A stretch of 64,000 bases of DNA from Deinococcales bacterium (GCA_043778225.1 JAYWGM010000061.1:2010-66009); one strand, 5' to 3'; shown: positions 1 to 64,000, counted from the first letter of the stretch. The notes: generated by a model not told the origin, from the letters alone. Numbers and translations are program-made.

Positions 1-772
1 GTGCTGGTATCAGGTCATAGCGCATGGTTTGTGGCGTGGCATCAAACCAAACCTCGATCCGCCAAGTGGCTGGAATGTTTTGCAGGCGCGTGGTGGCAAA
101 TTCACGGACATTAAAGTCGGCTGGTGGCTGGAAAAGCACTTGGCTGACTTGAACAACTCCAATGCGGTCAACCCGAAATAAACGAATATCTTGGCGCGTC
201 AGGCAGTACGCCACCAAAAACCATGTGCCACCGTCTCGCACCAAACCCAAGGGTTGGACGGTGCGTTGACTCGAGAGTCGGCGCTGATTTTGGTACTGCA
301 TTTCGAGTTGGCGTTGTTCTTGAATAGCCCGACTGATTTCTGCCACTAAACCCGCCTCGACTGGTGCAATCCACGGGGTTTTCTCGAGTTGCAAAGCCGT
401 GCTTAACGCCTGCATTCGCGCCCAAATGGTGGTTGGCAGCACCCGCTCGAGTTTGGCTTCTACGCCGACTACCGCAGGAGCAAGCGCACTTAAACCAATG
501 TGCTGCAAGGCATTTAAGCCCAGTGCAATGGCAAAGGCTTCTTCGTTAGAAAACATAATTGGTGGCATTCGGTAACTGGGTTTAAGGCGGTAACTTGCGC
601 CGCGTCCTTTACTTGAACTAACCGGCACACCCAAATCCTGAAGCCGAGCAATATAACGCTGCACAGTGCGACTGCTGACCTCGAGCAAGTTAGCCAGTTC
701 ACCAGCCGAGACACGTTCTTTGGCTTGGAGAATCTCGAGAATGGTTAAAACACGCATTGAAGGGTCGTACAT
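1..772 (-). CDS. YafY-type HTH + WYL-domain transcriptional regulator, partial (C-terminus lies beyond window start)
   Basis: Absent from ORF track (no stop in window). Manual minus-strand translation from ATG (complement of 770-772): MYDPSMRVLTILEILQAKERVSAGELANLLEVSSRTVQRYIARLQDLGVPVSSSKGRGASYRL..., later ..VRDGGTWFLVAYCLTRQDIRLFRVDRI (WYL-like core). Divergent to MFS gene. Confidence 0.8.
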   Translation of the reverse strand, partial: MYDPSMRVLTILEILQAKERVSAGELANLLEVSSRTVQRYIARLQDLGVPVSSSKGRGASYRLKPSYRMPPIMFSNEEAFAIALGLNALQHIGLSALAPAVVGVEAKLERVLPTTIWARMQALSTALQLEKTPWIAPVEAGLVAEISRAIQEQRQLEMQYQNQRRLSSQRTVQPLGLVRDGGTWFLVAYCLTRQDIRLFRVDRIGVVQVSQVLFQPPADFNVREFATTRLQNIPATWRIEVWFDATPQTMRYDLIPA

Positions 773-821
773 AACCGCCATTATAAGACGACAAGACCTG
801 ACGGGTTATGAGTTTAGGCTG

Positions 822-850
822 TTTTTGTGAACGCCAAAGATTCACAAAAA
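822..850. promoter_or_regulatory. Perfect inverted repeat TTTTTGTGAA-N9-TTCACAAAAA abutting the MFS RBS; candidate operator or leader hairpin
   Basis: 10-bp arms read directly (822-831, 841-850), GGAG RBS starts at 851. Lies in the divergent WYL-regulator/MFS intergenic region. Confidence 0.5.
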
Positions 851-858
851 GGAGCAAC

Positions 859-2118
859 ATGAACAAGAATACTCGAGGATTCGGACTGATTTTAAGCACC
901 TTACTGATAGACGTAGCCGCAATGGGAATGTTAATTCCAGTGCTGCCAGAATTGCTACGTACTTATTTTGACGGCGATTATGGGCGGGCTGCTCAGTTTG
1001 TTGGTCTTTTTGCAGCCCTATCCGCCGGACTGAGTTTTATCTTTGCACCAGTCATGGGCGCACTGAGTGACCGCTTTGGGCGCAAGCCAGTGCTGCTGCT
1101 TGGATTGATTGGACCAGCCGTCAGTTATTTTGGCTTGGCAATGGCGGATAACTTGGCTTGGTACGTTGTTGGCTTGTGTGTCAGTGGAATCCTAGGCGCG
1201 ATTCTAAGCACGATCAATGCCTACATTGCCGACATCACCCCACCCGAGTCTCGAGCCGAGCGTTTTGGTATGGTCGGCGCAGCTTTTGGCTTGGGCTTTA
1301 TTGTTGGACCACTCGCAGGTGGCTTGTTGGGCGGGCTTGGTTTACAAGTGCCATTTTATGTGGCAGGTGGAATCACATTGCTGAACATGGTGCTGTGTGC
1401 TTTATTGTTACCAGAAAGCCTTGCACCCGATAAGCGCCGTGCTTTTGCATGGGCAAATGCCAACCCACTTGGCTCATTGCGTTTACTCAGCCGCTCAAAG
1501 CTGCTGCTTGCCTTGGCAGCCTGTTTATTTCTTTCGAGCCTAGCATTGCAAGGTATGTACAGCACCTTTGTGCTTTCGATGACTCTGCGATTTGATTGGA
1601 ATACCGTTGCTGTGGGCATTGTATTTACCGTGATAGGCGTTTGCACTGCGCTTTCACAAACCCTGCTGGTTGGTCCAGTTATCAAGCGTTTAGGCGAACG
1701 GCGCAGTATTTTGGTAGGTTTAAGCGTTAGTGCCTTAGCCTTTTTGGCATATGCCCTGATTCCCCAAGGCTGGATGGTCTATTTGGTGATTGTTCTTGCC
1801 AGTCTTGGCGCAGTGGATGAACCCGCCGCACAAGCCCTACTGACCTCGAGTGTCAAGGAAGATGAGCAAGGTGCAATACAAGGAGCGCTGACCAGTTTAC
1901 TGAGCTTAACCGCCGTAGCTGGACCTTTAATTGCCACCAATGTTTTTGCTTATTTTGTAGCCCCCAATGCCCCAATCTACTTCCCTGGTGCGCCGCTTGC
2001 TTCTGGTGCGGTGTTGATTGCACTGGCACTGCTGATTGCATGGCGCTTTGTGCGTCCGATTCGAGCCAGCGCTGATGGTGCGATTCAAAATGTGGCATTC
2101 CAAGGCGCAAGTGATTAA
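859..2118 (+). CDS. MFS drug:H+ antiporter-like efflux transporter (TetA/Bcr-like class)
   Basis: ORF 808..2118 trimmed to ATG 859 (AAGGAG upstream). Multi-TM hydrophobic profile. MFS motif A GALSDRFGRKPVLL. Confidence 0.85.
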   Translation: MNKNTRGFGLILSTLLIDVAAMGMLIPVLPELLRTYFDGDYGRAAQFVGLFAALSAGLSFIFAPVMGALSDRFGRKPVLLLGLIGPAVSYFGLAMADNLAWYVVGLCVSGILGAILSTINAYIADITPPESRAERFGMVGAAFGLGFIVGPLAGGLLGGLGLQVPFYVAGGITLLNMVLCALLLPESLAPDKRRAFAWANANPLGSLRLLSRSKLLLALAACLFLSSLALQGMYSTFVLSMTLRFDWNTVAVGIVFTVIGVCTALSQTLLVGPVIKRLGERRSILVGLSVSALAFLAYALIPQGWMVYLVIVLASLGAVDEPAAQALLTSSVKEDEQGAIQGALTSLLSLTAVAGPLIATNVFAYFVAPNAPIYFPGAPLASGAVLIALALLIAWRFVRPIRASADGAIQNVAFQGASD

Positions 2119-2135
2119 ACATGAACTCGAGATGG

Positions 2136-2741
2136 TTAGAACACTTTTGCCAGTCTCGAGGGATGTAAATTCTTGCCCAGACTGTAAAATTCACAAAAAC
2201 TCATGAGTAAAGGCTTCCATTTATCGGTGTCCACACCATGTCGTTTTTCAGTATTCAAAATGGAATCATCCATGTACACCCGAATAATACGAACTTCGAC
2301 AGCAGCAGCAAAATCGGTTTGAAAATCATGAATTTGCGATACTCGAGCCTCGAGTTGGATTGGGCATTCTAAGACCCGTGGTGGAGTAACCAGTTCCGCA
2401 GGAATTGGTGTTAAACCCGCTTGGATAAATTTATCTTCAATGATTTCAAATCCCATACTGGTTTTATAAGCTGGCATGATGCTCGAGCCTGTGGTGAGGG
2501 CAAGTTTATCCACATTTTCCACCAAATCCGCTGAAGGTAAATTAAGGACACATTCGCCTGTGCGGCGCAGATTCTCGAGGGTTTTTGAACTTCTGCCCAG
2601 CCCGAGCATACAAGACTGCCCCAGCCACCAAGCACTGGACATTGGAGCAAGATTGGCTGTGCCATCTTGGTTGATGGTGCTAATGAGAACAACGGGAGTA
2701 CCAAAGTACATGATTTTTGGTTCAACAATTTGCAGTGTCAT
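2136..2741 (-). CDS. Flavin reductase-like (FMN-binding split-barrel) protein
   Basis: 201 aa. N-terminal pattern GTPVVLISTINQDGTANLAPMSSAWW typical of the flavin reductase domain. ATG confirmed at 2741. Confidence 0.75.
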   Translation of the reverse strand: MTLQIVEPKIMYFGTPVVLISTINQDGTANLAPMSSAWWLGQSCMLGLGRSSKTLENLRRTGECVLNLPSADLVENVDKLALTTGSSIMPAYKTSMGFEIIEDKFIQAGLTPIPAELVTPPRVLECPIQLEARVSQIHDFQTDFAAAVEVRIIRVYMDDSILNTEKRHGVDTDKWKPLLMSFCEFYSLGKNLHPSRLAKVF

Positions 2742-2859
2742 GTAAAAAGTTTAGGGGTTTGTCTCGAGAATTACTCCCTGAATCTTGTTCAGTAATTACT
2801 TGCATTATTTTCTTGCTGTACCTCGAGAACTCGAGTCCAGCATGGTAATTAGAGTTATT

Positions 2860-3273
2860 TTACGATGGGTTTTGCTGCATAAATTCTTCAGAGTACGGAA
2901 TCACCTGAATTACATCGATCAAAATATCATTGGGGTCGGTGGTGATAAAATGCCGTTGTCCAAAGGCTTCGTTGCGTAACTCGAGCAGAATTGGCAAACC
3001 TGCTTCTTTGAAATTGTGGTAAATCGGGTCTACATCTTCAACTTCAAAGTTCATAATTAACCCACCCGAAATACTTTTTCGGTAGGCGGCTGGAATGGTT
3101 TCATGGTTTGCATCAAGCAGTGCCAGTTCAAAAGTTGGTTCGGTTTTGGTTTTCAGGCTGACATACCAGTCGGCTTCAAAGGTTGTTTCAAACGGGAAGT
3201 GTTTGAGGTAAAAATCCTTTGACGCTTCGATGTTTTGGGTGCAGATAACGGCATATAGGCTTTTGATGTTCAT
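2860..3273 (-). CDS. VOC / glyoxalase-bleomycin-resistance family protein
   Basis: ORF 2860..3387 trimmed to ATG 3273 ([22 protein letters not shown]..) with GGAGG upstream. About 137 aa, single VOC-like fold. Divergent to the TetR gene. Confidence 0.75.
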
Positions 3274-3283
3274 AAATCCTCCA

Positions 3284-3336
3284 ATTACATACAATCTGTA
3301 TGTAATAAAAATGTATAATACATACAGATTGTATGT
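3284..3336. promoter_or_regulatory. Two related palindromic operators (ACATACA-N3-TGTATGT core), probable TetR binding sites
   Basis: O1 ATTACATACAATCTGTATGTAAT at 3284-3306 (10-bp perfect arms). O2 ACATACAGATTGTATGT at 3320-3336. Both sit between the divergent VOC and TetR starts. Confidence 0.6.
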
Positions 3337-3349
3337 CAAGAGGTTGAAA

Positions 3350-3928
3350 ATGCCAAAAACCAAAAAAGAACGCTCCGAACAAACCATTAATGCGGTACTC
3401 GAGGTTGCCGAAAAACACTTCGCCGAATACGGTTACGCACAAGTTTCCACCGATGCACTGGTACAAGAAATCGGCTTAACTCGAGGTGCGCTGTACCATC
3501 ATTTTGGCAGTAAACAAGGTTTATTTGAAGCCGTGGTTGAGCGCATCCATCAAAAAGCTGCCACTGCAATTAGCCAAACTGCAACAGACGACTGGGAAGG
3601 CTTTGTCAGTGGTTGTCTGGCATGGCTCGAGGTGGCAACAGACCCAACCACCCAAAGAATTCTGTTGCTGGATGCACCCGCCGTGATTGGCTGGGGGCGG
3701 TGGCTTGAGCTAGACGCACAATATGGTTCTAAATTACTGCTCGAGGGCATAGAGCATTTAATAAGTACCAAAGTGATTGTGTTTCCATCTGCTCTTGCAC
3801 TGCTGCAATTATTGAACGGGGCAATGAACCAAACTGCTTTGTGGGTGGCTCAATCAAAAACCCCTAAACGAAGCAAAAAAGAGGCTCGAGAAGCACTGGT
3901 GTATCTGCTCAATCGGGTTCGTGGTTAG
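3350..3928 (+). CDS. TetR/AcrR family transcriptional regulator
   Basis: ORF 3230..3928 trimmed to ATG 3350. N-terminal [53 protein letters not shown] is the classic TetR_N signature. Confidence 0.9.
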
Positions 3929-4000
3929 ATTCTAACTCGAGTAGGCTGTAGGCTGGCTCGAGCAATCAAGCCGAATTTCCCGAGTAGACTGGAGAACCTT

Positions 4001-4471
4001 ATGAGTGAAGAATTTTTTTCGGCATTACGGCTTTCCACAGCACTTGGCAGCGCCATTGTTGCAGGGTTTTTTCTGGCATTCTCGAGTACGGTCATGGTCA
4101 CATTGGCGCAACTCGAGCCTCGAGCGGGAATTATTGCCATGCAAAGCATTAACCGTACCGTGCTGAACCCATTTTTTATGCTGAGTTTTTTTGGAACAGC
4201 CATTCTTGCAGTCATTTTAATTTGGCAAGCATCCTCGCGTTTGCCACAAGCCAACGCTATTTTTTGGATACTTGGTGCAGCCATTTATGTTCTGGGTTCG
4301 GTACTCGTTACGATACTATTTAATGTTCCACTCAATAACAGCTTGGAAGCTGTTCAAGCCACCGATGCCAACAGTTTCGAGATTTGGCAGAACTACCTTC
4401 GCAACTGGACATTTTGGAATCATGTTCGTACAGGTGCTTCGTTTGTGGCGGCTGTGCTGCTGCTGCCTTGA
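4001..4471 (+). CDS. DUF1772 (anthrone-oxygenase-like) membrane protein
   Basis: 156 aa, about 4 TM segments. C-terminal NVPLNN...W..Y...W..WNHVRT pattern as in DUF1772. Confidence 0.7.
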   Translation: MSEEFFSALRLSTALGSAIVAGFFLAFSSTVMVTLAQLEPRAGIIAMQSINRTVLNPFFMLSFFGTAILAVILIWQASSRLPQANAIFWILGAAIYVLGSVLVTILFNVPLNNSLEAVQATDANSFEIWQNYLRNWTFWNHVRTGASFVAAVLLLP

Positions 4472-4586
4472 TGGTTTAAGCCCTGAATAACCTCAAAATC
4501 GTTTTCTGAATGAATAAAACAGGTGGATTCCACCAGCTTGCAGGTCTAGGCGGAGGCTCAAGCCGTAGGCATTATTTTTACCAGTT

Positions 4587-4994
4587 CTAAACCAAAAATA
4601 ATTCAACACTGACCCGAAAATAAGCGGCTAGTCTTAGGGCTAGAGTTTTACTGACTTCTCGTTCACTACTCAGCACCCTCGAGAGTAACCCTTGGCTGAT
4701 ACTGAGCGCATTTGCCAAAGCAGTCTGGGTTAAGTTCTGCTCGAGCATCAATTCCTCAAGAACTTCGTTTGGTTGGGCGTTAATAGGGGCTTGCTGGTGG
4801 TTTTCCCAATCGCTGATGTACGAAAACAGCAAATCCACTAGACCACAAATTTTCGGGTCAGATAAGGTGTAACGTTCGGTCAAATCATCGGTAAGCTCGA
4901 GCAGTTGCTGGTACTCCGATTCGTTTTCTGGGCGTTTGATTTGGCTAGTCACAATAAACTGATTCCAAGCGCCAACCACCATTTGTGAACTCAT
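4587..4994 (-). CDS. XRE-type HTH protein, HigA-like antitoxin family (no adjacent toxin)
   Basis: ORF trimmed to ATG 4994 with AAGGAGG upstream. C-terminal HTH LTQTALANALSISQGLLSRVLSSEREVS. Confidence 0.65.
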   Translation of the reverse strand: MSSQMVVGAWNQFIVTSQIKRPENESEYQQLLELTDDLTERYTLSDPKICGLVDLLFSYISDWENHQQAPINAQPNEVLEELMLEQNLTQTALANALSISQGLLSRVLSSEREVSKTLALRLAAYFRVSVELFLV

Positions 4995-5061
4995 GTTGTT
5001 TTTCCTCCTTATGCCAAACGAACATAAATATGTCAATACGGCATAATTCTTTTTCCTGTGC

Positions 5062-5544
5062 TTATTGGGCTGTTCTCGAGTTCAGCAGTTCCTCGAGACG
5101 GTTCAGGGTTTGGTTCATGCCAAATTCCATGCCAGCTTGAATGTGTCCATCGCGGTGTTCTTGGCTCTTATAAAGCAAGTGGCTTTGCAATTGTGTTTTG
5201 CCGTTGTTCTCGGTAAAGGTGGTGGTGACAAGGTAATCCATATCAGGAAGTGGTTCGTACATTTCGCTGTAGACCAATGAAACTGGGCTTGTGATGTCTT
5301 TGTAGACCCCAGAGTGTCCGTGTTGTTTGCCATCTGGGGCTTGTAGCACATAGCGCCAAGCCCCTCCAACACGAAGATCGATTTCGCAAACTATCATGGT
5401 TGAACTGCGTAGCCCATACCAGTTCTTAACGTGTTCTGGAGTCGTCCAAACATTGAACACCAAGTCCCTCGGAGCGTTGAATTCTCGAGTCAGAATCGTT
5501 TCCAAACCAGACGGGAAAGTGAGCTTCAGGGCGTTGTTGTTCAT
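5062..5544 (-). CDS. SRPBCC / AHSA1-domain protein
   Basis: 160 aa. REFNAPRDLVFNVWTTPEHVKNWYG is typical of the Aha1/SRPBCC family. AAGGAG RBS. Confidence 0.8.
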   Translation of the reverse strand: MNNNALKLTFPSGLETILTREFNAPRDLVFNVWTTPEHVKNWYGLRSSTMIVCEIDLRVGGAWRYVLQAPDGKQHGHSGVYKDITSPVSLVYSEMYEPLPDMDYLVTTTFTENNGKTQLQSHLLYKSQEHRDGHIQAGMEFGMNQTLNRLEELLNSRTAQ

Positions 5545-5583
5545 GGATACTCCTTACTAAAACTAAACTCGAGATTGGTTGGA

Positions 5584-6480
5584 TTATTTACTGGCTGCAT
5601 CAAGGAACGGTATCACGGTAGCACTCAAGGCTGAGGACATAAAAATCTGATAATGACTCGTAGCTGGCAGAATAGCCAATTGAGCCTTTGACATTCCCGA
5701 ACCATCCCAACCAGCGTCTTTTTGACCGCCGCCAAGCAATTCAAAGAATTGTGCGGTGTGGGCAGTGCTAATCGAATCTGCATCTCCTGCAACAATCATG
5801 GTTGGTAATTTTAGTTTAGCCACTTCATCTGCCCAGTTGTAATCTTGTACCAGCAATTCACGTATTTTGTTGTGCAGCGTCACCCAGTTCTCTGGCTTTG
5901 GGGCAACACCAACGTACAATTGGTGCGGAGGACTGCCTTTCATTCCTTCAGCAGAGGCTGCGCCCATTTGGGCGTGTTGCGCTCGTAAATCGGCAAACCA
6001 GCCATCACGCTTAAAAGGTGTAGAAACCAGCACAAGTTTACGCACCAGACTTGGGTGCTGAATCGCGGTTCGCAATGCCACACCACCACCGAGCGAGTAG
6101 CCCATGACATCGGCATTGGATAAACCCAAGTGGCGTATGAGACCCGCAATATCATCTGCCATACGCTCATAAGAAAGTGGGCGGTTAATGTCGGCAGTTC
6201 GTCCATGGGCTTGTAAATCTACGGCGATCACTTGTCGTCCTTTGGCGAGTTGAGGCAACACTTCGCCAAACATTTCTATTGCCCCAAGTCCGCCGTGCAA
6301 CAGAATAACGGGTTGTCCTATGCCATGAATTTGATAGTAGAGGTTCAGTCCATTGACGGGTGCATAACCACTTTTGGTTGCGCTAGAATTGCCAGATTGA
6401 GCTTGCAGATTTGTTGCTAGTAAGGTCGTACCGAGAATGGCGGTGGCTGCGAAAATGTTCTTGATGCTTGGTGTTTGCAT
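5584..6480 (-). CDS. Secreted alpha/beta hydrolase
   Basis: 298 aa. Signal peptide (AILGTTLLATNLQAQS), oxyanion HGG (ILLHGGLG), nucleophile elbow GYSLGG. AAGGAG RBS. Confidence 0.85.
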   Translation of the reverse strand: MQTPSIKNIFAATAILGTTLLATNLQAQSGNSSATKSGYAPVNGLNLYYQIHGIGQPVILLHGGLGAIEMFGEVLPQLAKGRQVIAVDLQAHGRTADINRPLSYERMADDIAGLIRHLGLSNADVMGYSLGGGVALRTAIQHPSLVRKLVLVSTPFKRDGWFADLRAQHAQMGAASAEGMKGSPPHQLYVGVAPKPENWVTLHNKIRELLVQDYNWADEVAKLKLPTMIVAGDADSISTAHTAQFFELLGGGQKDAGWDGSGMSKAQLAILPATSHYQIFMSSALSATVIPFLDAASK

Positions 6481-6621
6481 GATAAAGCTCCTTTTTTGGC
6501 AAGCGATTACCTGCGGTCATGATTTTCATGTCCGAGCAGGATTCAAAGTGACTTGGTTTTATTGCTTCAGCTAATGTACGGTTATCTGTTCAAAGCAAAC
6601 CTCCGTTCTTGGTGAATAATT

Positions 6622-6727
6622 GCTGCAATGTTTAACCAGTAAAGGTTACGTCTCGAGATTGAGCGCAGTCTTAACTTATACTGCGGTTCAAGCTGCAATG
6701 TTTAACCAGTAAAGGTTACGTCTCGAG
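6622..6727. repeat. Perfect 36-bp direct repeat x2 (GCTGCAATGTTTAACCAGTAAAGGTTACGTCTCGAG) separated by a 34-bp spacer
   Basis: Copies at 6622-6657 and 6692-6727, read directly. Each contains a TAACC-N6-GGTTA stem-loop. Lies between the arsR stop and the hydrolase start. Confidence 0.9.
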
Positions 6728-6745
6728 TAACCTTGAGGTAATCAA

Positions 6746-7081
6746 TCAAATACTTTTTTGCAGGGTTTTTAAGTATTCGTCTAAGCGGTCAAAGCTCTCT
6801 GTCCAGTGTTGTTCAAATGGTTTTACCCAATCAAAAATGGGTTTTAGAGCTTCGGCGTTGAGGCTGTAAAGTCGTTGTTGTCCTACACTTTGGAGTGTCA
6901 CCAGTCCAACTTCTTTTAGCACTTGTAAATGTTTTGAAACTTGGGGTTGGCGAATTCCGAGGCGCTGGGCGATTTCATTGACAGAGTAATGCTGGCGGGT
7001 AGAAAGTAGCTCGAGGATGTTGCGTCGTTGCGTTTCAGCAATGGCATTAAAAGCATCGGCGGTGGTGGGTAAGCGTGCCAT
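6746..7081 (-). CDS. ArsR/SmtB family transcriptional regulator
   Basis: 111 aa. wHTH ETQRRNILELL..VNEIAQRLGIRQPQVSKHLQVLKEVGLV. Confidence 0.9.
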   Translation of the reverse strand: MARLPTTADAFNAIAETQRRNILELLSTRQHYSVNEIAQRLGIRQPQVSKHLQVLKEVGLVTLQSVGQQRLYSLNAEALKPIFDWVKPFEQHWTESFDRLDEYLKTLQKSI

Positions 7082-7137
7082 TTCTAAAAACAGTATATTC
7101 TTATATAAGAATATATGTCAAGTGCCAGTCAGTAAAA

Positions 7138-7569: not shown

Positions 7570-7571
7570 AC

Positions 7572-27063: not shown

Positions 27064-28230
27064 ATGACCCAAGCCAGAATTACCCGCGTTAGGCTCGAGA
27101 ATTATAAAAGCATCAAGTTTTGTGATGTCAAACTCGAGCCTATAACTGTGCTGGTTGGACAGAACGGCAGTGGGAAAAGTAATTTTTTAGATGCCTTAGT
27201 GTTCACTCGAGATTTATTACTGCAAAATCTGGATTTTGCAATTCAGGAACGTGGTAACTTTTTTGAAATTGCTCGTAAAGAAGGTGTACAACAAGCCCCG
27301 AGTTTTTCGGTCTTACTTGAAGTTACAGTTGGTCAAGAGTGCCTTGCACTGTATTATCAAATTGCATTTGAAGAAAAACCAATCATCAAAGAGCAATACT
27401 TGAAGAATGAGCAGGGTGAATATTTATACAAAATTGCAGAGAATGATATTTTAATCAACTCGATTCATCTGATAGAGCATCTTTTCACCAGTCACCTTGG
27501 TATTTCGGTCAAAAGTGACTCAGATGTCAATGTCAAGGGCTTGGTGAATGTTTTTTTGCTTTTATTGCAATTTCTAAATCCTATACCAGAACATATGCGT
27601 CCACCCCAAAATCCTAATTTTTTTAACTGGTTCAAAGCTGATGGATCAAATATGGATTCGGTCTATCAAAAACTCGAGCAAGGGCAAGCTCAAAAGGTTA
27701 GAAAAATCAAGCACTACTTAGGTCTAGTCAACCCAGATATTATTGATATTGAAGTGAACAATGTCAGTAATTATCTGCTTGTGGATTTTCTGGGTAAATC
27801 ATCTCGCTTCAATAAAAGTGCCGCATCAGATGGAACGCTAAGTGCATGGGCATTGATAACTGCATTGTTTTATTGTGACGACTTAAAAAACTCAAAGCTA
27901 CTTGCCGATACAGGTTGTATTCTAATCCTCGAAGAACCCGAAGCGCATTTATACCCAACGGCATTAGAAATTCTCCTCATTCTGATACGCCAAGTTGTAC
28001 CAACTGTACAGATTTTATTGTCTACACACAGCCCAGTTTTACTCGAGAAAATTGAACTTGCTTCTGGTAAAGAAAAAATTTTGGTGGTAGAAACATTTAA
28101 TGGTGAAACAATCATTGATGAGATAGATACAGCCAGTCGTAATGTTGTTCACAAAAAACTATTTGACCTCGGCGAACTTTTAACCATGAATCAACTTGAA
28201 CCAAAAGCAATTGCTGGAAAAGCCCGATGA
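27064..28230 (+). CDS. ABC/OLD-type AAA ATPase (AAA_15/AAA_21-like), candidate defence ATPase
   Basis: 388 aa. N-terminus ITRVRLENYKSIKFCDVKLEPITVLVGQNGSGKSNFLDAL (Walker A). C-terminus ILILEEPEAHLYP (Walker B/D-loop) and LLSTHSP (H-loop). Confidence 0.8.
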   Translation: MTQARITRVRLENYKSIKFCDVKLEPITVLVGQNGSGKSNFLDALVFTRDLLLQNLDFAIQERGNFFEIARKEGVQQAPSFSVLLEVTVGQECLALYYQIAFEEKPIIKEQYLKNEQGEYLYKIAENDILINSIHLIEHLFTSHLGISVKSDSDVNVKGLVNVFLLLLQFLNPIPEHMRPPQNPNFFNWFKADGSNMDSVYQKLEQGQAQKVRKIKHYLGLVNPDIIDIEVNNVSNYLLVDFLGKSSRFNKSAASDGTLSAWALITALFYCDDLKNSKLLADTGCILILEEPEAHLYPTALEILLILIRQVVPTVQILLSTHSPVLLEKIELASGKEKILVVETFNGETIIDEIDTASRNVVHKKLFDLGELLTMNQLEPKAIAGKAR

Positions 28231-28835
28231 GTTTACTGATTCAACCAATTGTTGAAGGTCAGGGTGAAGTGCTTGCAACTCGAACCTTAATCACTCGAAT
28301 TGCTGCGACTTTTTGGAATCCTGACAGCTATGTTGAAGTGCTTCGCCCTATTTTAATTCATCGAACCAAAATTGATATTGCGTCAGAACTAGAAAATCGT
28401 ATTGAGTTAGCTCGACAAAAAATTCATGCCTCTGATTCAAATGGTGGTATTCTTGTTTTGTTTGATAGCGATGATGATTGCCCAGCAACTCTAGCGCCTA
28501 AATTGCTTGAGCGAGCTAAGAATGCCTGTATAGATGTGCCAATTAGTGTGGTTATGGCGCATCGAGAATATGAAACATGGTTTCTTGCTGCCGCTTCTTC
28601 TATTGAAGCACTCAAAAATGCTTTGCCACACCCTGACCCCGAAAGTAAACGTGGTGCAAAAGAATGGCTATCACGGCATATGACCGACAGTTACGAACCA
28701 ACAGATTACCAAACCTCATTTACTACACAATTTGATTTGCATCTGGCTCGAGAAAATGCGCCTTCGTTTGATAAGCTCTGCCGTGATTTAACCGCTATGC
28801 TAACCGAACTTTCTAATACCCCTCCGCCGCCGTGA
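28227..28835 (+). CDS. DUF4276-like protein (Toprim-like acidic motifs)
   Basis: 202 aa, ATGA overlap with the ATPase. IQPIVEGQGE near the N-terminus, LFDSDDDCP (DxD-like) and REYETWFLAA match my memory of the DUF4276 pattern. Confidence 0.65.
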   Translation: MSLLIQPIVEGQGEVLATRTLITRIAATFWNPDSYVEVLRPILIHRTKIDIASELENRIELARQKIHASDSNGGILVLFDSDDDCPATLAPKLLERAKNACIDVPISVVMAHREYETWFLAAASSIEALKNALPHPDPESKRGAKEWLSRHMTDSYEPTDYQTSFTTQFDLHLARENAPSFDKLCRDLTAMLTELSNTPPPP

Positions 28836-30323: not shown

Positions 30324-31967
30324 ATGGCAATTCGGGTCTTACCAGAGTCTTTACGGCGTGAAATTGCGGCGGGTGAAATTATTGCCCGACCAAGCGACGC
30401 GGTTAAAGAATTGCTCGAGAATGCCCTCGATGCTGGGGCAACCCGAATCGAAGTGCTGTTGCGCGGGGCTGGACTGGATTTAATTAGGGTATCAGATGAC
30501 GGGGCGGGGATTGCCGCCCAAGAAGTCGAATTGGCTTTAGAGCGCTTTGCAACCAGTAAACTCGAGACGATAGAAACCATTGCCACCCTCGGTTTTCGTG
30601 GTGAAGCCTTATGGAGCATGGCATTTGCCGCCGATGTGGTGCTGACCACTCGCCCAAAAAATCAGCTTGGTGGCTCGAGATTAACCGTGCTGGACGGTGA
30701 GCGCACTTTAACAAAAGTCACCAGTCCATCCGGTACAACTGTTGAAGTGCAAAAATTATTTGCCCGTTTTCCAGCCCGTAAAGCTGGCTTAGAAAGTGCT
30801 GCCCTCGAGACCCGACGTGTTATCAATCTGGTACAGCGTTATGTGCTGCATCACCCAAGTGTGGCATGGCGTGTGACTGTTGAAACAGATGTACGCCTTA
30901 ACCACACGCCCAGTAATTTCCGCGAGGCAGTCGCCACAGTTTACGGCGCAATGACCGCTAACCGTTTGCTCAGCCTTGACTTTGAGCAAAACGGTGTGCG
31001 GGTAACAGGGGTGATTACCCGCCCCGAACTTGCCCGACCGCGCACTGACCGAATGCACGTGGCAATCAACAACCGCCCAGTCGAACTCGAGACCAACATC
31101 GAAAATGCTGTGCTGCGGGCGTTGAGTAGCTTATTGCCCAAGAACCATGCTCCGAGTATGGTCTTAAATATCGTTGTGCCGCCCGAAACGGTTAATCAAA
31201 ACGCCCACCCCGGAAAATTGCGGGTGGCGTTGCTCGAGGCAAAACGAGTCGAAGCTGTGGTCGAAGCCGCGATTGCCCAAGTTCTGGTGGCTCAGCCACT
31301 TGCCCCCAGTGCGCCCGAGCCAAGAATTGTCCAAGCCCCACAAGCCATTCGGTCAGTCTTCCCAGAACTGCGTTTGATTGGCACATACCGCGATACCTAT
31401 TTGCTTGCCGAAAGTACCGACGGCGATTTATGGTTACTCGACCAACACGCCGCCCATGAACGAATTATCTTTGAAGAACTCGAAGATGGATTCGAGACTG
31501 CCCAAGCCCTCGAGTTACCTAAGCCTGAGTTATTGACCCTGCCGCCAGATGTTGAACTTGCACTCGAGACACGGCGCGAAGAACTGCAAACTTGGGGCTT
31601 TAGCTTCGAGAATTTTGGCGGTGGGTTGCACCGCATTGCCAGTATTCCAGCCGCCTTGATTGCGCTGCGCCTCGAGACGGTTGTGGATGTGCTATCTCGA
31701 GCCTTAAATGCTCCCGATGCCCGCCGTGATTTTTTGGCACGAATGGCGTGTTTACCGGCGATTAAAGCCGGACACAAACTTTTAGAAGCTGAGGCAATTG
31801 TGCTGCTAGAGACGCTACGGGCTTGCCGTGTGCCGTGGGCGTGTCCGCACGGCAGACCGACGGCGCTAAAATTAAGCGAACGGGATTTAGCGCATCAATT
31901 TGGACGGCGCAGCCCAAGGGATGTAGCCAGCAGCCCAAAAGAGGTTGCTCGAGAAGTAAAGGTTTGA
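30324..31967 (+). CDS. mutL: DNA mismatch repair protein MutL (endonuclease-type)
   Basis: 547 aa. GHKL motifs VKELLENALDAGA and DDGAGI. C-terminal endonuclease motif DQHAAHERIIFE. Confidence 0.95.
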   Translation: MAIRVLPESLRREIAAGEIIARPSDAVKELLENALDAGATRIEVLLRGAGLDLIRVSDDGAGIAAQEVELALERFATSKLETIETIATLGFRGEALWSMAFAADVVLTTRPKNQLGGSRLTVLDGERTLTKVTSPSGTTVEVQKLFARFPARKAGLESAALETRRVINLVQRYVLHHPSVAWRVTVETDVRLNHTPSNFREAVATVYGAMTANRLLSLDFEQNGVRVTGVITRPELARPRTDRMHVAINNRPVELETNIENAVLRALSSLLPKNHAPSMVLNIVVPPETVNQNAHPGKLRVALLEAKRVEAVVEAAIAQVLVAQPLAPSAPEPRIVQAPQAIRSVFPELRLIGTYRDTYLLAESTDGDLWLLDQHAAHERIIFEELEDGFETAQALELPKPELLTLPPDVELALETRREELQTWGFSFENFGGGLHRIASIPAALIALRLETVVDVLSRALNAPDARRDFLARMACLPAIKAGHKLLEAEAIVLLETLRACRVPWACPHGRPTALKLSERDLAHQFGRRSPRDVASSPKEVAREVKV

Positions 31968-32732: not shown

Positions 32733-34703
32733 TTACTTTGTCAATGTCTCGAGAACAACCTTAACCACATTCTCCACATTAAATCCGAGTTCCTTAAATA
32801 CTACCGCATCTGGCGCACTTGCCCCGTACCTGTCGAGCGTCACCGTGCTGCCATCTAAGCCCACAAAGCGCTCCCAGCCGAGGCTCGAGCCAGCCTCAAT
32901 CGCCACCCTAGCGCGGATGCTGTTAGGCAGCACACTTTCTTTGTACTCGGCACTTTGGCTCGAGTAAATATCCCATGATAATAAACTGACGACTCGGGCT
33001 TTTTTGCCTTGCTCGAGCAGTGCCTTTTGCGCCTCGAGTGCCAAACTGACTTCGCTGCCAGTAGCGATGAGGATTACATCTGGTGTACCGTCTGAATCTG
33101 CAACAATGTAGCCACCTTTGGCGGCGTTGGCGTTAATCTCGAGAACGGGTAAATCTTGGCGGCTAAGAATAATCGCGGTTGGCTTATGTTGTTGCTCGAG
33201 GGCAATTTTCCATGCCACACTGGTTTCGTTGGCATCGGCTGGGCGAATCACGCTTAGGTTTGGTATGGCTCGTAAGGCTGCCAAATGCTCGATCGGTTGG
33301 TGCGTTGGTCCATCTGTGCCTACGCCAATGCTGTCGTGCGTAAAAACATAAATCACGGGTTGGTGCATCAGGGCTGCCATGCGGATGGCGTTTTTCATGT
33401 AATCCGAAAAGGTAAAGAATGTTGCTATAAACGGGCGCAGTCCAACCAGTGCCATCCCGTTTGCCATACCCGCCATGCCAAATTCGCGCACCCCAAAGTT
33501 GATGTTGCGGGCTGCTAAGTTATCCCTTGTCATGGCTGGTTCGCCTTTAATGACTGTCATGTTGCTGCTGCTCAGGTCGGCACTGCCACCAATCAGACGT
33601 GGCTCGAGTTTCACCAGCGCGTTAATACTGTCACCGCCAGCGTTGCGGGTGCGTACCATTTTGCCGACTTCGTACTTGGGCATCTGCTCGAGTGGGTAGT
33701 GCTGGGTTGGGTTTTGCATCATGCTCAGGAGTTCTTGGGCGAGTTCTGGGTAGGCTGCCATGTACGCGCCGTACTTGGCGTTGCCAGCTGCCTCGAGTGC
33801 CGCACCTTTTGCTCCAGCCTCGAGCCACGGCGCTGCGCCTTCTGGGTCTATAAAAAATGGCTCGAGGTTACTAAAACCATAGTGTTTCTTGGCAAAAATC
33901 ACGTCGTCCGCACTGGGGGCTTTGCCGTGAACATCTGCAAGTCCCGCTTTTGGCAGTCCGTAGCCAATCGTGGTTTTGACCTTGATTAAACTTGGGCGTG
34001 GGTCGGCTTGGGCGGCTCTAATCGCATTCTCGAGTCCAGTATAATCGGTGTCGCCGTCGGTAATCTCGAGAACGTGCCAGTTATAGGACATAAAACGCTG
34101 GGTAATATCCTCAGAAAATGCCCATTGGGTTGGACCATCTAACTGAATTTCGTTGTCGTCGTAAAGCATAATCAGCTTACCTAGCCCAAGATGCCCTGCC
34201 AGACTGGCGGTTTCGTGCGAAATCCCTTCTTGCAGGTCGCCGTCCGAGCAAATACCGTAGACAAAACCATCCACAATTTCGTGCTGGTCGCGGTTGTAAC
34301 GAGCCGCTAAATGCTGCAAACTCAATGCCATACCGACGGCATTGGCAAAGCCTTGCCCCAATGGACCGGTTGTGGTTTCGACTCCGACGGTGTGTCCAAC
34401 TTCGGGGTGTCCTGCCGTGGCACTGCCCCATTGCCTAAATTGCTTAATCTGCTCAAGCGGCAAGTCGTAACCCGTTAAATGCAGCGCTGCATATTGCAGC
34501 ATACTGCCATGACCAGCGCTTAAAACAAACCTATCTCGAGCTAACCAAGCTGGGTTTTTAGGGTTGTAGCGCATGATTTTTGTCCACAGCACATAGCCAA
34601 TCGCCGCCATGCCAAGTGGCGCACCGGGGTGTCCTTCCTTGGCTTTACAGATGGCATCGAGGGCGAGGGCGCGGAGGGTATTGACGGCAAGGGTGTCATT
34701 CAT
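32733..34703 (-). CDS. tkt: Transketolase
   Basis: 656 aa. N-terminus AVNTLRALALDAICKAKEGHPGAPLGMA. TPP motif CSDGDLQEGISHE. Confidence 0.95.
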   Translation of the reverse strand: MNDTLAVNTLRALALDAICKAKEGHPGAPLGMAAIGYVLWTKIMRYNPKNPAWLARDRFVLSAGHGSMLQYAALHLTGYDLPLEQIKQFRQWGSATAGHPEVGHTVGVETTTGPLGQGFANAVGMALSLQHLAARYNRDQHEIVDGFVYGICSDGDLQEGISHETASLAGHLGLGKLIMLYDDNEIQLDGPTQWAFSEDITQRFMSYNWHVLEITDGDTDYTGLENAIRAAQADPRPSLIKVKTTIGYGLPKAGLADVHGKAPSADDVIFAKKHYGFSNLEPFFIDPEGAAPWLEAGAKGAALEAAGNAKYGAYMAAYPELAQELLSMMQNPTQHYPLEQMPKYEVGKMVRTRNAGGDSINALVKLEPRLIGGSADLSSSNMTVIKGEPAMTRDNLAARNINFGVREFGMAGMANGMALVGLRPFIATFFTFSDYMKNAIRMAALMHQPVIYVFTHDSIGVGTDGPTHQPIEHLAALRAIPNLSVIRPADANETSVAWKIALEQQHKPTAIILSRQDLPVLEINANAAKGGYIVADSDGTPDVILIATGSEVSLALEAQKALLEQGKKARVVSLLSWDIYSSQSAEYKESVLPNSIRARVAIEAGSSLGWERFVGLDGSTVTLDRYGASAPDAVVFKELGFNVENVVKVVLETLTK

Positions 34704-48561: not shown

Positions 48562-48604
48562 AATGAACCCCTAATAAACCTCGAACTCTCGAGGCAGCCT
48601 CGAG

Positions 48605-61045: not shown

Positions 61046-62550
61046 CGCTTACCTCTCGAGCCAATCAGTAAAAACCCAGCCAGCGATAAGCCCAATAAAA
61101 TCATCGCTAAGGCACTGGCTTCGCCCATTTGGTTTGGGCGGCTCAAGCGTTGGTAAATCATGGTTGTCAGGGTTGCCCATTCGGGTCTACTGAGCATTAG
61201 GCTAGCGGCAAATTCGCCAATCACCACCGCAAAGCCAAGCGCCACACCACTTCGCAGGGCGTGTTCGGTTAAAGGCAAAATAATGTACCGAAACTGCTGC
61301 CATGTGTTTGCGCCGTCTAAACTGGTAGCCTCGAGTAAACTTGGTTCGATTCGGCGCAAGGCACTGAGCATCGCTCGAGTGATTAAAGGATAGGCACTCA
61401 AGGCATAAACCGCTATCAGCAACGGCAGACTAGCCACCAGCCTTGGGTAAGCCACAATAAAAGCAACTCCCAAAACGGTACTCGAGACTGACAAAGGCAA
61501 TAAAGAAAGCGTATCCAAAATGCGGTTTTGACTGCGCCAAACACCAAGTGCATAACTGACCCCAAGTGGTACAGCCACCAGCAATGCCAGAACAGCAAAA
61601 CGCAGGTTATTCCACAGGGCTGCGCCAAGGTTGCTCGAGAAAATACGGCTTGAAGTTTCAAAAAGGTTCTGGTAATGAATCAAGGTGAAACCATCGGCAT
61701 TCAAGACACTTTTAAGGGCAACCGCCAATAAAGGCATCAGGGTCAACAGCCCTAAAAAACCAACCACAAGCCACAAGCCTACTCGAGTCCAACCTGTGGC
61801 AGTGGGTCTGAATGAATCAAATTCCTGAGCTTGGCTGCTGCGTCGCTCAAAACCCGTGACCAGCCATGCGGCGCTCAAGGTGAACAGCAATTGCAGCAGC
61901 GCTAACCCCGACGCATTCTCGAGTTCTAGCCTTTGCACACTTTGGTACATCTCGACCTCGAGCGTCGCAAAGCCAGACCCACCCAATAAAAGCGGAATCC
62001 CAAAACTGGCAAAAGTGTACAAAAAAGCCAACCCAGCCCCAATCAAAGCACTGGGTAAAGCCGTTGGCAGAGTCACAAAACGCCAAACTTGCCAAGCATT
62101 TGCGCCTTCAAGCCTTGCAACCCACTCGAGTTCAAGGCTTTGCGTGGCTAAACTGTTGATTACCAGCCGAATTGCCAAGCCAAGGTTATAAAAAATGTTT
62201 GCCAGCAGCACCAACCAGAGTGTTCCCTCGAGCTTATAAATCCAGCCTCGAGCGCCAAATAAGCTCAAGAATCCAAGGGCTGCGACCAAGATCGGTACGA
62301 CAAAAGGAACACCCAACAATGCCTCGAGCCATGCTTTGCCACGAAATGTATAGCGCCCTAACAGACTGCCAAAAACCAATGCCAAAAGTAAAATAATGCC
62401 ACTCGAGAGCAGTGCTTGGGTTAAAGTGACGATCAGTCGCTCGAGCATAAAAACGTTCAATGCCAGATTGACCCCGCGAACCAAAAGCACCAGCATAGGG
62501 TACAGCACACAAGCCAGTAAAAATAAAAGAAGCGGTGCGGCAAACAGCAT
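61042..62550 (-). CDS. ABC transporter permease with two fused MetI-like domains (iron(III)/thiamine-type)
   Basis: About 502 aa, polytopic. Two EAA-like loops (..ARLEGANAWQVWRFVTLP.. and ..ATSLDGANTWQQFRYIILP..). ATG 62550 (track ORF starts at GTG 62553). Confidence 0.8.
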   Translation of the reverse strand: MLFAAPLLLFLLACVLYPMLVLLVRGVNLALNVFMLERLIVTLTQALLSSGIILLLALVFGSLLGRYTFRGKAWLEALLGVPFVVPILVAALGFLSLFGARGWIYKLEGTLWLVLLANIFYNLGLAIRLVINSLATQSLELEWVARLEGANAWQVWRFVTLPTALPSALIGAGLAFLYTFASFGIPLLLGGSGFATLEVEMYQSVQRLELENASGLALLQLLFTLSAAWLVTGFERRSSQAQEFDSFRPTATGWTRVGLWLVVGFLGLLTLMPLLAVALKSVLNADGFTLIHYQNLFETSSRIFSSNLGAALWNNLRFAVLALLVAVPLGVSYALGVWRSQNRILDTLSLLPLSVSSTVLGVAFIVAYPRLVASLPLLIAVYALSAYPLITRAMLSALRRIEPSLLEATSLDGANTWQQFRYIILPLTEHALRSGVALGFAVVIGEFAASLMLSRPEWATLTTMIYQRLSRPNQMGEASALAMILLGLSLAGFLLIGSRGKR

Positions 62551-62626
62551 CACAGTTTATATTGGCACGAAAATACCTCGAAATACGATAAACCGCTTAC
62601 GCCAGAACTAGGATAAACTGTAGAGC

Positions 62627-64000
62627 GTGAATGTGGTTCTGGTTGGTTTGCTCTGGTTTGCCATGATGCTTGGCTATCTGCTGGATTCATTTACAACTCG
62701 AAGTTTGGTGCTGGGCGTGGCGAATCTATGTGGTGTCTTATTTTTTTGGCAATTGCAGGCTTATGTGCCAAAAAATTGGCGACTGCTGCTGATCGGTCTT
62801 GCCATTGGCGTGGTTTTTGTTGGAATGGGACAAGTTGCCTTATCGTTTGCTTTGCCAGCCTTTGAAGAACCTTTAACCATTATTGGATTGATTTTTTTGT
62901 TGTTAGCCACGATTACACTGCCGTATTTTCTCGAGCGCAACGCTGTTTTTAAGCGCGGTTTGGCAAACCGTTTTGTGGTCTGGAGTCTGTTGTTTAGTTT
63001 TCTAATCAGTCTTGTGACCCAAATTTTTATCCGTCCAGTTTTGATTGAACTGTTGTACCAAACAATCACGGTTTTTATGGCGAGTCTGTTTTTTTTGCAA
63101 GGCTTGTCTGCTCCCGATACGGCTGCTGGGCGGGTTGTCCAAACGATTGCTCGAGCCTTTACAGTGGTCAGCCTTGCACAATTGTTGTTTAACTGGCTTG
63201 TACCACTGATGGGCTGGGAAGCCGCCCAAAATGTCCAGCGTTCTTTTTGGATACTTGGTGTTTCGTTGTTGGCATTTTATCCACGCCAAGAAAGCCAGTC
63301 AAACGCCTTGCCGTGGTTACGTTGGTTTGATAACGCTGGTGTCTTTAGTAAAATCATGACCTTAATTGTGGCGATTCTTGTGCCGTACACCATCAGTATG
63401 CTGATTTATCTGGCGCAGATTGTTGAGGCAGCAATCCTCAGCACCCGAGGCTTGGTGGCAGAAAATGTCTACCTCGAGGCAAAAGCCAATATCTTAAATG
63501 GGATTTACACGGCTGTTTCACTGCTTATTCCATTGATTATTTTAACCGTTTTTATTGTTTCCAATAGCCTGAGCGCCCGCAGCAAGCGCTTGGCACGGAT
63601 TGCCGAAGAACTGGCAAAAGGCGAATTGACCGCCCAATTACAACATGAAGCTCGAGATGAAATCGGTCAGGTGGCAACTGCTTTTGCCGCAATGATGACC
63701 TACCAACGAGCCATGGCAGCCACGGCAACCCAAATTTCAAACGGTGATTTGCGCCAAAATACAGCCGCCCTATCAGATAAAGATACCCTCGGCACAGCTT
63801 TTTCTGGGATGGCACAGAATTTACAAAAACTGCTCGAGTCCTTACAATATAATGCCCAAGAAGTGAGTCGTGCTTCGAGTCAAATCCAAAATAGTGCGCT
63901 TGAACTGAGCCGTTCTGCCAGTAGCCAAAGTGCCAGTGTCCACCAGACCACCAGCACCGTGCAACAAGTTCACAGCAGTGCCGAGCAGATTGCCGAACAC
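62627..64000 (+). CDS. Membrane sensor with HAMP domain and start of an MCP signalling domain, partial (runs off window end)
   Basis: Absent from ORF track. Open frame from GTG 62627 (stop TAG at 62621-62623) to 64000, 458 codons. Multi-TM N-terminus, then HAMP-like RLARIAEELAKGELTAQLQHEARDEIGQVATAFAAMM, then Ser/Gln/Ala-rich coiled coil typical of methyl-accepting proteins. Confidence 0.7.
   Translation, partial: MNVVLVGLLWFAMMLGYLLDSFTTRSLVLGVANLCGVLFFWQLQAYVPKNWRLLLIGLAIGVVFVGMGQVALSFALPAFEEPLTIIGLIFLLLATITLPYFLERNAVFKRGLANRFVVWSLLFSFLISLVTQIFIRPVLIELLYQTITVFMASLFFLQGLSAPDTAAGRVVQTIARAFTVVSLAQLLFNWLVPLMGWEAAQNVQRSFWILGVSLLAFYPRQESQSNALPWLRWFDNAGVFSKIMTLIVAILVPYTISMLIYLAQIVEAAILSTRGLVAENVYLEAKANILNGIYTAVSLLIPLIILTVFIVSNSLSARSKRLARIAEELAKGELTAQLQHEARDEIGQVATAFAAMMTYQRAMAATATQISNGDLRQNTAALSDKDTLGTAFSGMAQNLQKLLESLQYNAQEVSRASSQIQNSALELSRSASSQSASVHQTTSTVQQVHSSAEQIAEH

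Follow-up and report, generated by a model that had tools for sequence, protein, structure and literature searches.

The window, a stretch of 64,000 nucleotides assigned to a Deinococcales bacterium (GCA_043778225.1, JAYWGM010000061.1:2010-66009), is densely filled with the palindromic hexamer CTCGAG, a word of the highly iterated palindrome (HIP) type that is known from cyanobacteria, here with a new sequence and in a new phylum. An exact count gave 405 copies at a GC content of 49.3%, corresponding to 6.3 sites per kb or a mean spacing of 157 bp (about one site per 160 bases), with 8 to 17 sites per 2 kb along the whole window. Since 15.2 copies are expected from the base composition, the observed/expected ratio (O/E) amounts to 26.7 (approximately 27-fold, z about 100). 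The initial annotation of this DNA had arrived by hand at about 405 copies and a 25-fold excess over some 16 expected, and this copy number is confirmed by the exact count.

The expectation for CTCGAG is 8.4, 27.6 and 124 copies under Markov models of order 1, 2 and 3, respectively, and at orders 0 to 3 it is the most extreme of all 4,096 hexamers and the sole outlier among them. The runners-up are overlaps of CTCGAG itself (GCTCGA with 142 copies, TCGAGC with 134, and others), while the commonest hexamer unrelated to it, CAAAAA, occurs 89 times. An O/E near 1 under a model of 4th or 5th order had been named in advance as an argument against the excess. Formally such a ratio was obtained at order 4 (354.6 expected, O/E 1.14), but the test is circular and therefore invalid because the sub-words CTCGA (469 copies), TCGAG (462) and TCGA (611) derive almost wholly from CTCGAG. 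Classifying the TCGA tetramers according to the presence of the first C and the last G yielded counts of 405, 64, 57 and 85, a strong coupling of the two bases that by our own arithmetic amounts to an odds ratio near 9.4 (hypergeometric z about 11).

The unit of the excess is the bare hexamer, since its one-off variants are ordinary in number, its flanks nearly uniform and longer palindromes lacking. The 18 one-off variants occur in 2 to 27 copies each and sum to 251 copies where about 274 are expected, and they are thus neither depleted nor enriched, as had been noted before. TTCGAG and CTCGAA (49 copies together) as well as CTTGAG and CTCAAG (also 49) are not depleted either, with about 31 expected for each pair. 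The bases flanking the sites are almost uniform, and the previously suspected tendency towards GGCTCGAGCC did not hold: its 7 copies compare with 6.4 expected from independent flank preferences (51 x 51 / 405), so that a longer motif was rejected. The sites are not centres of longer palindromes; a palindromic extension by at least 1 bp is slightly disfavoured (17.5% of sites vs 25% expected), and the 8-bp palindrome CCTCGAGG is avoided among them (3 vs about 14 expected from the flank frequencies). A degenerate AvaI-type motif, CYCGRG, was likewise rejected in view of the counts for CCCGGG (1), CTCGGG (16) and CCCGAG (12).

The Poisson-like spacing claimed by the initial annotation holds roughly. 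However, the sites are significantly more evenly distributed than a Poisson process would place them, with variance/mean ratios of 0.79, 0.60, 0.49 and 0.36 in bins of 0.5, 1, 2 and 4 kb (P 0.035 to 0.005) and a coefficient of variation of the gaps of 0.90. Sorted by their remainder on division by three, the gaps number 189, 116 and 99, and the enrichment of multiples of three results from the coding frame.

On a simple gene map based on open reading frames (ORFs; 87% coding), 359 sites fall within ORFs and 46 within 8.2 kb of intergenic DNA, i.e. 6.4 and 5.6 sites per kb. The coding sites are distributed over the three frames as follows:

CTC|GAG (Leu-Glu): 231 sites, 64% of the coding sites
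xCT|CGA|Gxx: 64 sites
xxC|TCG|AGx: 64 sites

Because all three frames are used and the intergenic density is close to the coding density, the pressure acts on the DNA itself and is specific to the exact hexamer. The intergenic positions listed in the initial annotation each lie within 0 to 5 nt of a CTCGAG site and are all intergenic. Its reading of a HIP1-like word carried by the bare hexamer, on both strands and inside as well as outside genes, is borne out by the use of all frames and of non-coding DNA and by the insufficiency of codon usage. Two close intergenic pairs and the largest gap between sites are:

2822..2835, intergenic pair of sites at 2822 and 2830, with unrelated flanks
48588..48604, intergenic pair of sites at 48588 and 48599
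5569..6651, longest stretch without a site (1,084 bp from one site to the next), spanning a Glu-poor alpha/beta-hydrolase gene at 5584-6480 (2.7% Glu, no Leu-Glu)

A mere effect of codon usage would require proteins rich in Leu-Glu that are encoded with CTC and GAG as preferred codons. The predominance of the CTC|GAG frame would fit such an effect, and high-GC viral contigs and Thermus indeed attain 1 to 5 sites per kb in this way. In the window, however, both are minor codons outside the word (CTC 9% of the Leu codons, GAG 25% of the Glu codons), the reciprocal Glu-Leu palindrome GAGCTC is absent (0 copies), and 46 sites are intergenic and 128 lie in the other two frames. Taking furthermore into account that the Leu-Glu excess is derived and absent from outgroup orthologues (see below), the codon-usage explanation is refuted and we assign it practically no probability. 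A relic of a high-GC ancestor with CTC and GAG as major codons was also rejected, since GAGCTC should then be equally common, as it is in Thermus, and neither the intergenic sites nor the other two frames would be accounted for.

In terms of synonymous choice, CTCGAG has almost saturated the genome. The word spells 67% of the Leu-Glu pairs, and in the tabulation by peptide class it accounts for 66% of the eligible Leu-Glu peptides, for 54% of those of the form [SPTA]-Arg-[VADEG] and for 39% of those of the form X-Ser-[Ser/Arg]. Leu-Glu is also the most over-represented dipeptide across the window (347 vs 141 expected, 2.5-fold). The site density increases with the Glu content of the genes and with their GC content at third codon positions. 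Genes poor in sites are Glu-poor and mostly encode membrane proteins; since their GC content is normal, the notion that site-free genes represent foreign DNA was rejected. Compositionally atypical genes, among them a defence gene pair of low GC content, carry fewer sites (4.7 vs 6.6 per kb), a density that is still far above chance. Such distortion of codon and dipeptide statistics can mislead methods for gene calling, codon adaptation and the detection of horizontal gene transfer.

Lineage-wide distribution and conservation of the sites

A 71 kb metagenome scaffold (ENA ERZ28574018, BUSI22-1 scaffold_150) contains the window, and further assemblies of this population match it at 100% identity, without single nucleotide polymorphisms. 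Judging from the sample names, the source material probably comprises metagenomes of glacier-fed streams and glaciers. When metagenomes of glaciers or cold freshwater are binned, the hexamer offers a simple k-mer marker of this lineage. Relatives were retrieved with the transketolase of the window, whose orthologues also served to assess conservation, gain and protein impact:

32733..34703, minus strand, transketolase gene (Pfam) with 15 CTCGAG sites

The search revealed six species-level relatives (L001-L006; 85-95% identity), all in metagenome-assembled genomes (MAGs) labelled by their submitters as Deinococcales or Deinococcota. CTCGAG is the top hexamer in all six (4.4-6.6 sites per kb, O/E 21-30), as compared with an O/E of 0 to 3.9 in 48 unrelated control loci from the same search. 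The gene order around the transketolase gene is wholly different in all seven genomes of the clade, even where the transketolase genes share 91-95% of their DNA sequence (L001, L002, L004). This disparity may reflect very fast rearrangement, an exchange of the transketolase gene among members of the clade by recombination or transfer, or MAG contigs that are chimeric. As the gene orders differ, the loci come from unlinked genomic regions, and this speaks for a trait of the whole genome.

For more distant relatives the number of Leu-Glu pairs in the transketolase served as a protein-level proxy for the trait, which the DNA of the loci confirmed. In the graded series from the protein search this number is 7 to 15 down to about 64% identity and 2 to 5 below. 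The loci examined at the DNA level are listed here with the identity of their transketolase to that of the window:

L183 (from the 5.09 Mb contig ctg355695_41x_l of ERZ26165376, apparently a long-read assembly), 72% identity, GC 62%, 5.5 CTCGAG per kb, O/E 16
L184 (from the 1.12 Mb contig Ga0484955_0000005, JGI 3300045107), 71% identity, GC 63%, 8.0 CTCGAG per kb, O/E 24
L190, 71% identity, GC 56%, 5.9 CTCGAG per kb, O/E 20
L186 and L187, 54% identity, GC 54-56%, 7.4 and 6.9 CTCGAG per kb, O/E 29 and 24
L188 and L189 (few Leu-Glu), 64% identity, GC 48.5%, 0 CTCGAG per kb, O/E 0

GAGCTC occurs 0 to 1 times in each trait-positive locus. The negative lineage (L188 and L189; GCA_965191025.1, CBCZNU010000029.1) has no copy of CTCGAG over 22 kb, since it strongly avoids the tetramer TCGA in general (O/E 0.25), as it does GATC (O/E 0.04). 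This avoidance is of the TaqI type and the opposite of the CTCGAG trait, and we therefore rejected the zero count as a sign of an XhoI-type enzyme.

Pooled over nine lineage groups, 1,337 sites were found in 211 kb where about 55 are expected (24-fold). These groups span GC contents of 45-63% and transketolases that are 54-100% identical, and all of them show 4.4 to 8 sites per kb and an O/E of 16 to 28. Trait-positive MAGs include JAYWHB01, JANNEE01, JANNVX01, JAAFIG01, JAAFJQ01 and JBEGTV01. The trait is absent from Deinococcus radiodurans MP1 (CTCGAG O/E 0.47) and from plasmid pTT27 of Thermus thermophilus, where CTCGAG reaches an O/E of 2.7 and GAGCTC is equally common (both about 1 per kb). 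The trait is thus common to a deep, uncultured lineage, old, independent of the GC content and of rather constant density.

A scan of viral sequences for dense CTCGAG triplets revealed the true signature in one contig only, most matches being high-GC contigs. This contig of 110 kb (L165; IMG/VR 3300018422_000001, positions 1-9722 examined) is phage-like, with ORFans and one helix-turn-helix protein at a GC content of 64%. It contains 57 CTCGAG in 9.7 kb as its top hexamer and no GAGCTC, which matches the signature of the high-GC trait-positive bacteria, and it may represent a virus or provirus of this lineage. Many other high-GC viral contigs (among L061-L180) carry 3 to 5 CTCGAG per kb, with CTC, GAG and GAC as dominant codons and with GAGCTC and CTCGAC equally common. 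Screens for the trait should hence compare CTCGAG with GAGCTC, as the codon usage of high-GC contigs is otherwise misleading.

Within the transketolase, most pairs of orthologues agree at no more than 53-66% of third codon positions, yet eight sites are the same in all seven orthologues of the clade. At 6 of the 11 conserved Leu-Glu columns every one of the seven genomes has an identical hexamer, compared with 24 of 328 other conserved dipeptides of similar degeneracy and with 3 of 44 conserved Leu codons that precede a residue other than Glu. This conservation result refers to a single gene family, and for the intergenic sites synteny is lacking.

The transketolases of the clade contain 12 to 13 Leu-Glu pairs (13 in the enzyme of the window), whereas 46 outgroup enzymes contain 1.7 on average (range 0 to 4) and carry unrelated residues such as ST, DK, RK, HL and ID at the corresponding positions. 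The sites were installed via amino-acid replacement, the word overriding the protein sequence at tolerant positions. A core of five to eight Leu-Glu columns is common down to 55-72% protein identity, while 43 different columns are in use across 53 trait-positive transketolases. At the DNA level, 38 site columns are in use across 11 genomes, with parallel gains; the same columns were hit independently in separate lineages, sometimes via three to five substitutions. The picture, with retention and turnover side by side, is that of a lasting pressure under which all positions tolerated by the protein become filled.

These data also bear on a technical origin, be it adapter, linker, vector or assembly error, and on a dispersed family of repeats or miniature inverted-repeat transposable elements (MITEs) with a CTCGAG core. 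Apart from the sheer number of sites nothing favours such an origin. The density is equal across independent samples, studies and assemblers in nine independent lineage groups, in-frame sites in conserved proteins are kept at orthologous positions between species, and the flanks share nothing. An artefact, which the initial annotation had already doubted, or a repeat family is thus refuted and merits hardly any credence.

Candidate mechanism and competing explanations

Since the word is palindromic and a classic type II site, its recogniser would be a sequence-specific, dimeric protein and most plausibly a methyltransferase; CTCGAG is the recognition site of XhoI and PaeR7I. Drawing on the parallel with HIP1 and on the fact that the word is an XhoI-type site, we consider it moderately probable that CTCGAG is a HIP-type word recognised by a protein and probably methylated as a mark of self DNA, which was brought near saturation by selection and/or methylation-biased conversion. 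The recognising protein of the lineage would most likely be a CTCGAG-specific DNA methyltransferase, either an orphan or part of a restriction-modification system. Methylated CTCGAG might then tag self DNA and favour the uptake, recombination or repair of conspecific DNA. Alleles carrying a site would win by purifying or positive selection and/or by methylation-biased mismatch correction and gene conversion, so that the word would spread until the tolerated positions are saturated and would be maintained thereafter.

More tentatively, the trait might represent a second, independent origin of HIPs, in which a methylated palindromic self word acts as a genome-wide drive element in polyploid, recombination-proficient and transformable bacteria and overrides the protein sequence; alleles with a methylated site would prevail during uptake, recombination or the repair of heteroduplexes. 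Natural transformation is established for cultured Deinococcus and Thermus. This extended proposal is possible rather than probable. If it were true, the same solution would have arisen in cyanobacteria and in this Deinococcota lineage by means of different words. A comparison of the genes that accompany the trait in the two phyla could then reveal what HIPs do.

Several observations weigh against a methylated HIP-type self word. The density of 6.3 sites per kb is three to six times that of HIP1 and above any spacing need proposed for repair or uptake. The one-off variants are not enriched, whereas those of HIP1 (HIP1*) are enriched and conserved; nor are they depleted, and a simple very-short-patch sink fits poorly because it would deplete its own substrates. 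Furthermore, a ratchet based on methyl-directed repair in the style of Dam and MutH seems unlikely in that form, since the MutL encoded in the window is of the endonuclease type and thus predicted, from its motifs, to belong to a MutH-independent mismatch repair:

30324..31967, plus strand, MutL gene (Pfam, translation) with 11 CTCGAG sites, endonuclease-type, motifs DQHAAHERIIFE (DQHA(X)2E(X)4E) and CPHGRP

Finally, no DNA methyltransferase, Vsr or restriction nuclease was detected in the 71 kb scaffold and about 220 kb of other trait-positive DNA, together about 290 kb and a small part of any genome. For the window itself the absence of a DNA methyltransferase had been stated before and is confirmed. 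Motif scans of all clade loci did not reveal a methyltransferase, and neither a Vsr nor a 5-methylcytosine methyltransferase motif was found in the trait-positive DNA examined.

The TCGA core is recognised by N6-adenine methyltransferases of the gamma class that possess a TaqI-like specificity domain. A search with M.TaqI (sequence verified against PDB 1AQJ) against 5.8 billion proteins returned only close TaqI orthologues. A TaqI-family profile was run against 50% representatives, whose matches were then screened for the Leu-Glu signature of the clade. Neither search revealed an enzyme on trait-positive DNA, a weak negative given that a few per cent of any genome are covered, which nevertheless counts against the proposed methyltransferase. 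One profile match (P0335) was rejected since it lies on a Planctomycete-like prophage contig, in which 21.5 kb contain 2 CTCGAG, and the viral TaqI-family loci are without CTCGAG.

CTCGAG might also act unmethylated, as a signal for DNA uptake or recombination and the direct target of a competence receptor or recombination enzyme. It would then spread by molecular drive, through preferred uptake or recombination of transforming DNA that contains it, as described for the uptake signal sequence (USS) and the DNA uptake sequence (DUS), without benefit to the host. Such a signal would suit a trait that is conserved throughout the lineage, the natural competence of cultured Deinococcota and the role in transformation that is now argued for HIP1. 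On the other hand, known uptake sequences comprise 9 to 12 nt, are non-palindromic and occur about once per kb, while a hexamer found by chance about once in 4 kb discriminates poorly against foreign DNA, and the effect of HIP1 depends on methylation. Moreover, no competence gene is present in the window; a ComEA-like HHH_3 gene was detected in L183. We regard an unmethylated signal as unlikely. A functionless by-product of biased repair or mutation, in which a very-short-patch-like nuclease or methylation-biased gene conversion turns near-cognates into CTCGAG, would explain the similar pressure on coding and non-coding DNA and, as slow amelioration predicts, the smaller number of sites in compositionally atypical genes. 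Conversion bias can also mimic selection, including apparent conservation, and such a ratchet has been proposed for HIP1 by Elhai (PMC4390886). This explanation is difficult to reconcile with the undiminished one-off variants, with gains that in many cases require three to five substitutions and an amino-acid change, and with a density that stays at 4.4 to 8 per kb across GC contents of 45-63% and very deep divergence; a Vsr-like gene was likewise not found in the DNA examined. Hence a pure by-product seems improbable, to about the same degree. Even less probable in our view are binding sites of an abundant nucleoid-associated or chromosome-organising protein that were selected for even coverage of the chromosome. 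The distribution that is more even than Poisson, the palindrome suiting a dimeric binder and the constant density across lineages would agree with such sites, and a structural role has been argued for HIP1 by Xu et al. (PMC5861425). The saturation of tolerated positions explains the under-dispersion equally well, however, the same signature in the 9.7 kb examined of the phage-like contig is unexpected for a chromosome-specific role, and no candidate protein was identified.

Other palindromes and further genes of the window

Of the 64 palindromic hexamers, 29 have no copy in the window, with about 15 expected for each. Among the tetramers GGCC is absent (236 expected), GATC occurs 31 times (250 expected), CCGG 47 times and CTAG 58 times. 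GTCGAC, GGCGCC, CTGCAG, GAGCTC and others are near zero in all lineages sampled, including the CTCGAG-negative one (L001-L006, L183, L184, L186-L190). Avoidance of 6-bp palindromes is thus common to all lineages, whereas that of GGCC and GATC is lineage-specific, and CTCGAG is the one strongly favoured palindrome in genomes otherwise hostile to palindromes. Since TGGCC never occurs in the window, Trp-Pro, which is always encoded by TGG CCN, cannot be encoded anywhere in it. The transketolases of the GGCC-avoiding clade contain no Trp-Pro as opposed to a mean of 0.78 in the outgroups. Restriction-type avoidance thus keeps a dipeptide out of the proteome.

Further features of the window include candidate defence genes, a repeat and a pair of paralogues:

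27064..28835, plus strand, HEC-01A (AAA_15/AAA_21 ATPase) and HEC-01B (DUF4276), candidate defence gene pair (PADLOC)
8596-12791, plus strand, region with the gene of a 922-aa protein that has DUF6022 and UvrA-like/ABC ATPase domains and matches (232 bits) the PADLOC model mad3, which belongs to the methylation-associated defence system (MADS)
57821-58372, plus strand, putative endonuclease gene of the Uma2 family (DUF820), PADLOC candidate PDC-S03
6630-6657 and 6700-6727, intergenic, two copies of a 28-nt direct repeat GTTTAACCAGTAAAGGTTACGTCTCGAG, 70 bp apart and beside two MarR-type regulator genes
20899-23646, minus strand, two tandem paralogous glutamate/Leu/Phe/Val dehydrogenase genes (ELFV_dehydrog)

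The HEC-01 pair has a GC content of 38-43% and contains 6 CTCGAG in 1.8 kb, a reduced number yet still an approximately 14-fold excess. It was probably acquired more recently, and its site density is consistent with an accumulation of sites with residence time. The mad3-like gene is followed by a gene encoding a BCS1-like AAA ATPase, and no methyltransferase adjoins. The Uma2/DUF820 family is expanded in cyanobacteria; an expansion as a shared feature was rejected, as the family is present in a single copy in 221 kb of clade DNA. The sequence TAACCTT after the second copy of the direct repeat forms an inverted repeat with AAGGTTA, and the repeat may, from this arrangement, serve as an operator. 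The tandem pair of dehydrogenase genes was also found near the transketolase gene in the distant relative L184. RNA genes were not detected in the window.

Comparison with known systems

Copies of repetitive extragenic palindromes or MITEs share sequence around a core, whereas the CTCGAG copies share none beyond the hexamer and their intergenic contexts are unrelated, save for one local duplicate. Chi and the FtsK-orienting polar sequences (KOPS) are over-represented short words as well, with a role in recombination or segregation, but they are asymmetric and oriented with replication, while a palindrome carries no orientation. The Dcm/Vsr system of Escherichia coli (CCWGG) is similar in that a methyltransferase-linked repair bias raises the frequency of its own site, which is the mechanism the initial annotation had proposed. 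That bias has only a small effect, staying well below 2-fold, and neighbouring words derived from T:G mismatches become depleted. CTCGAG differs in its 27-fold excess and undepleted neighbours, and neither a Vsr nor a 5-methylcytosine methyltransferase was found in the DNA examined.

The USS of Pasteurellaceae and the DUS of Neisseriaceae resemble CTCGAG as genome-wide, lineage-specific short words that also occur within genes and shape peptides. They are thought to spread by molecular drive in natural transformation, and the phylum of the CTCGAG host includes naturally competent genera. DUS often form inverted pairs in terminators. CTCGAG is a bare palindrome of 6 nt at several times their density, without an extended motif or an association with terminators, and thus does not correspond to these signals. 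With the XhoI and PaeR7I systems it shares the recognition sequence itself. Genomes with an active restriction enzyme usually avoid its site, whereas this lineage avoids most other 6-bp palindromes while CTCGAG has been driven to saturation; no such system was located in the DNA searched here. The DNA of the lineage is predicted to be either cut by XhoI to fragments of about 160 bp or fully resistant.

The closest likeness is to the HIPs. HIP1 has been known for more than 30 years, and insight into its function is just starting to emerge; for CTCGAG, as for the HIPs of cyanobacteria, there is no agreed function. Its sequence is GCGATCGC, and the alternate cyanobacterial HIPs are GGCGCC, GCsGC, GGGATCCC, rCCGGy, TCGATCGA and CAGGCCTG. 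Like these, CTCGAG is a short palindrome in tens-fold excess, present in coding and non-coding DNA without a flanking motif, lineage-wide, conserved at orthologous positions and identical to the recognition sequence of a type II restriction-modification system. It therefore agrees with the HIP class in the descriptive features of fold-excess, dispersion, lineage-wide distribution and orthologous conservation. In contrast to the HIPs, which are mostly 8 nt long with at least 75% GC and described from cyanobacteria, CTCGAG comprises 6 nt with 67% GC and occurs in MAGs labelled as Deinococcota. It is also more frequent (5,500-8,000 per Mb vs about 300-2,700 per Mb for HIP1) and visibly rewrites proteins (Leu-Glu 2.5-fold). 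The HIP class is quasi-periodic at 10-90 kb; within the 64 kb of the window, local under-dispersion was observed.

Every cyanobacterial genome with a HIP encodes the matching methyltransferase (Elhai 2015, PMC4390886), and a cognate enzyme was not found in the small part of the trait-positive genomes searched here. HIP1 sites are kept by selection and conserved above the synonymous background (Xu et al. 2018, PMC5861425). HIP1 has been termed 'Chi-like', and in its methylated form it boosts natural transformation more than 100-fold (bioRxiv 10.1101/2024.09.10.611283); it has accordingly been proposed as an uptake or recombination signal (bioRxiv 10.64898/2026.06.24.733823). Neither a hyper-abundant CTCGAG nor a HIP outside cyanobacteria is described in the literature searched, with many subscription papers lying outside that search; this is in keeping with the initial annotation, to which no CTCGAG equivalent was known. 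As all HIP cases found there are cyanobacterial, lineage history and function are inseparable in them. An unrelated phylum with a word of its own provides an independent replicate, one that is denser, coincides with a classic restriction site and is strong enough to give a housekeeping enzyme about ten additional Leu-Glu. Families of genes that accompany the trait in the two phyla would be prime candidates for the machinery behind these words, with methyltransferases, nucleases and competence or recombination proteins as the obvious ones.

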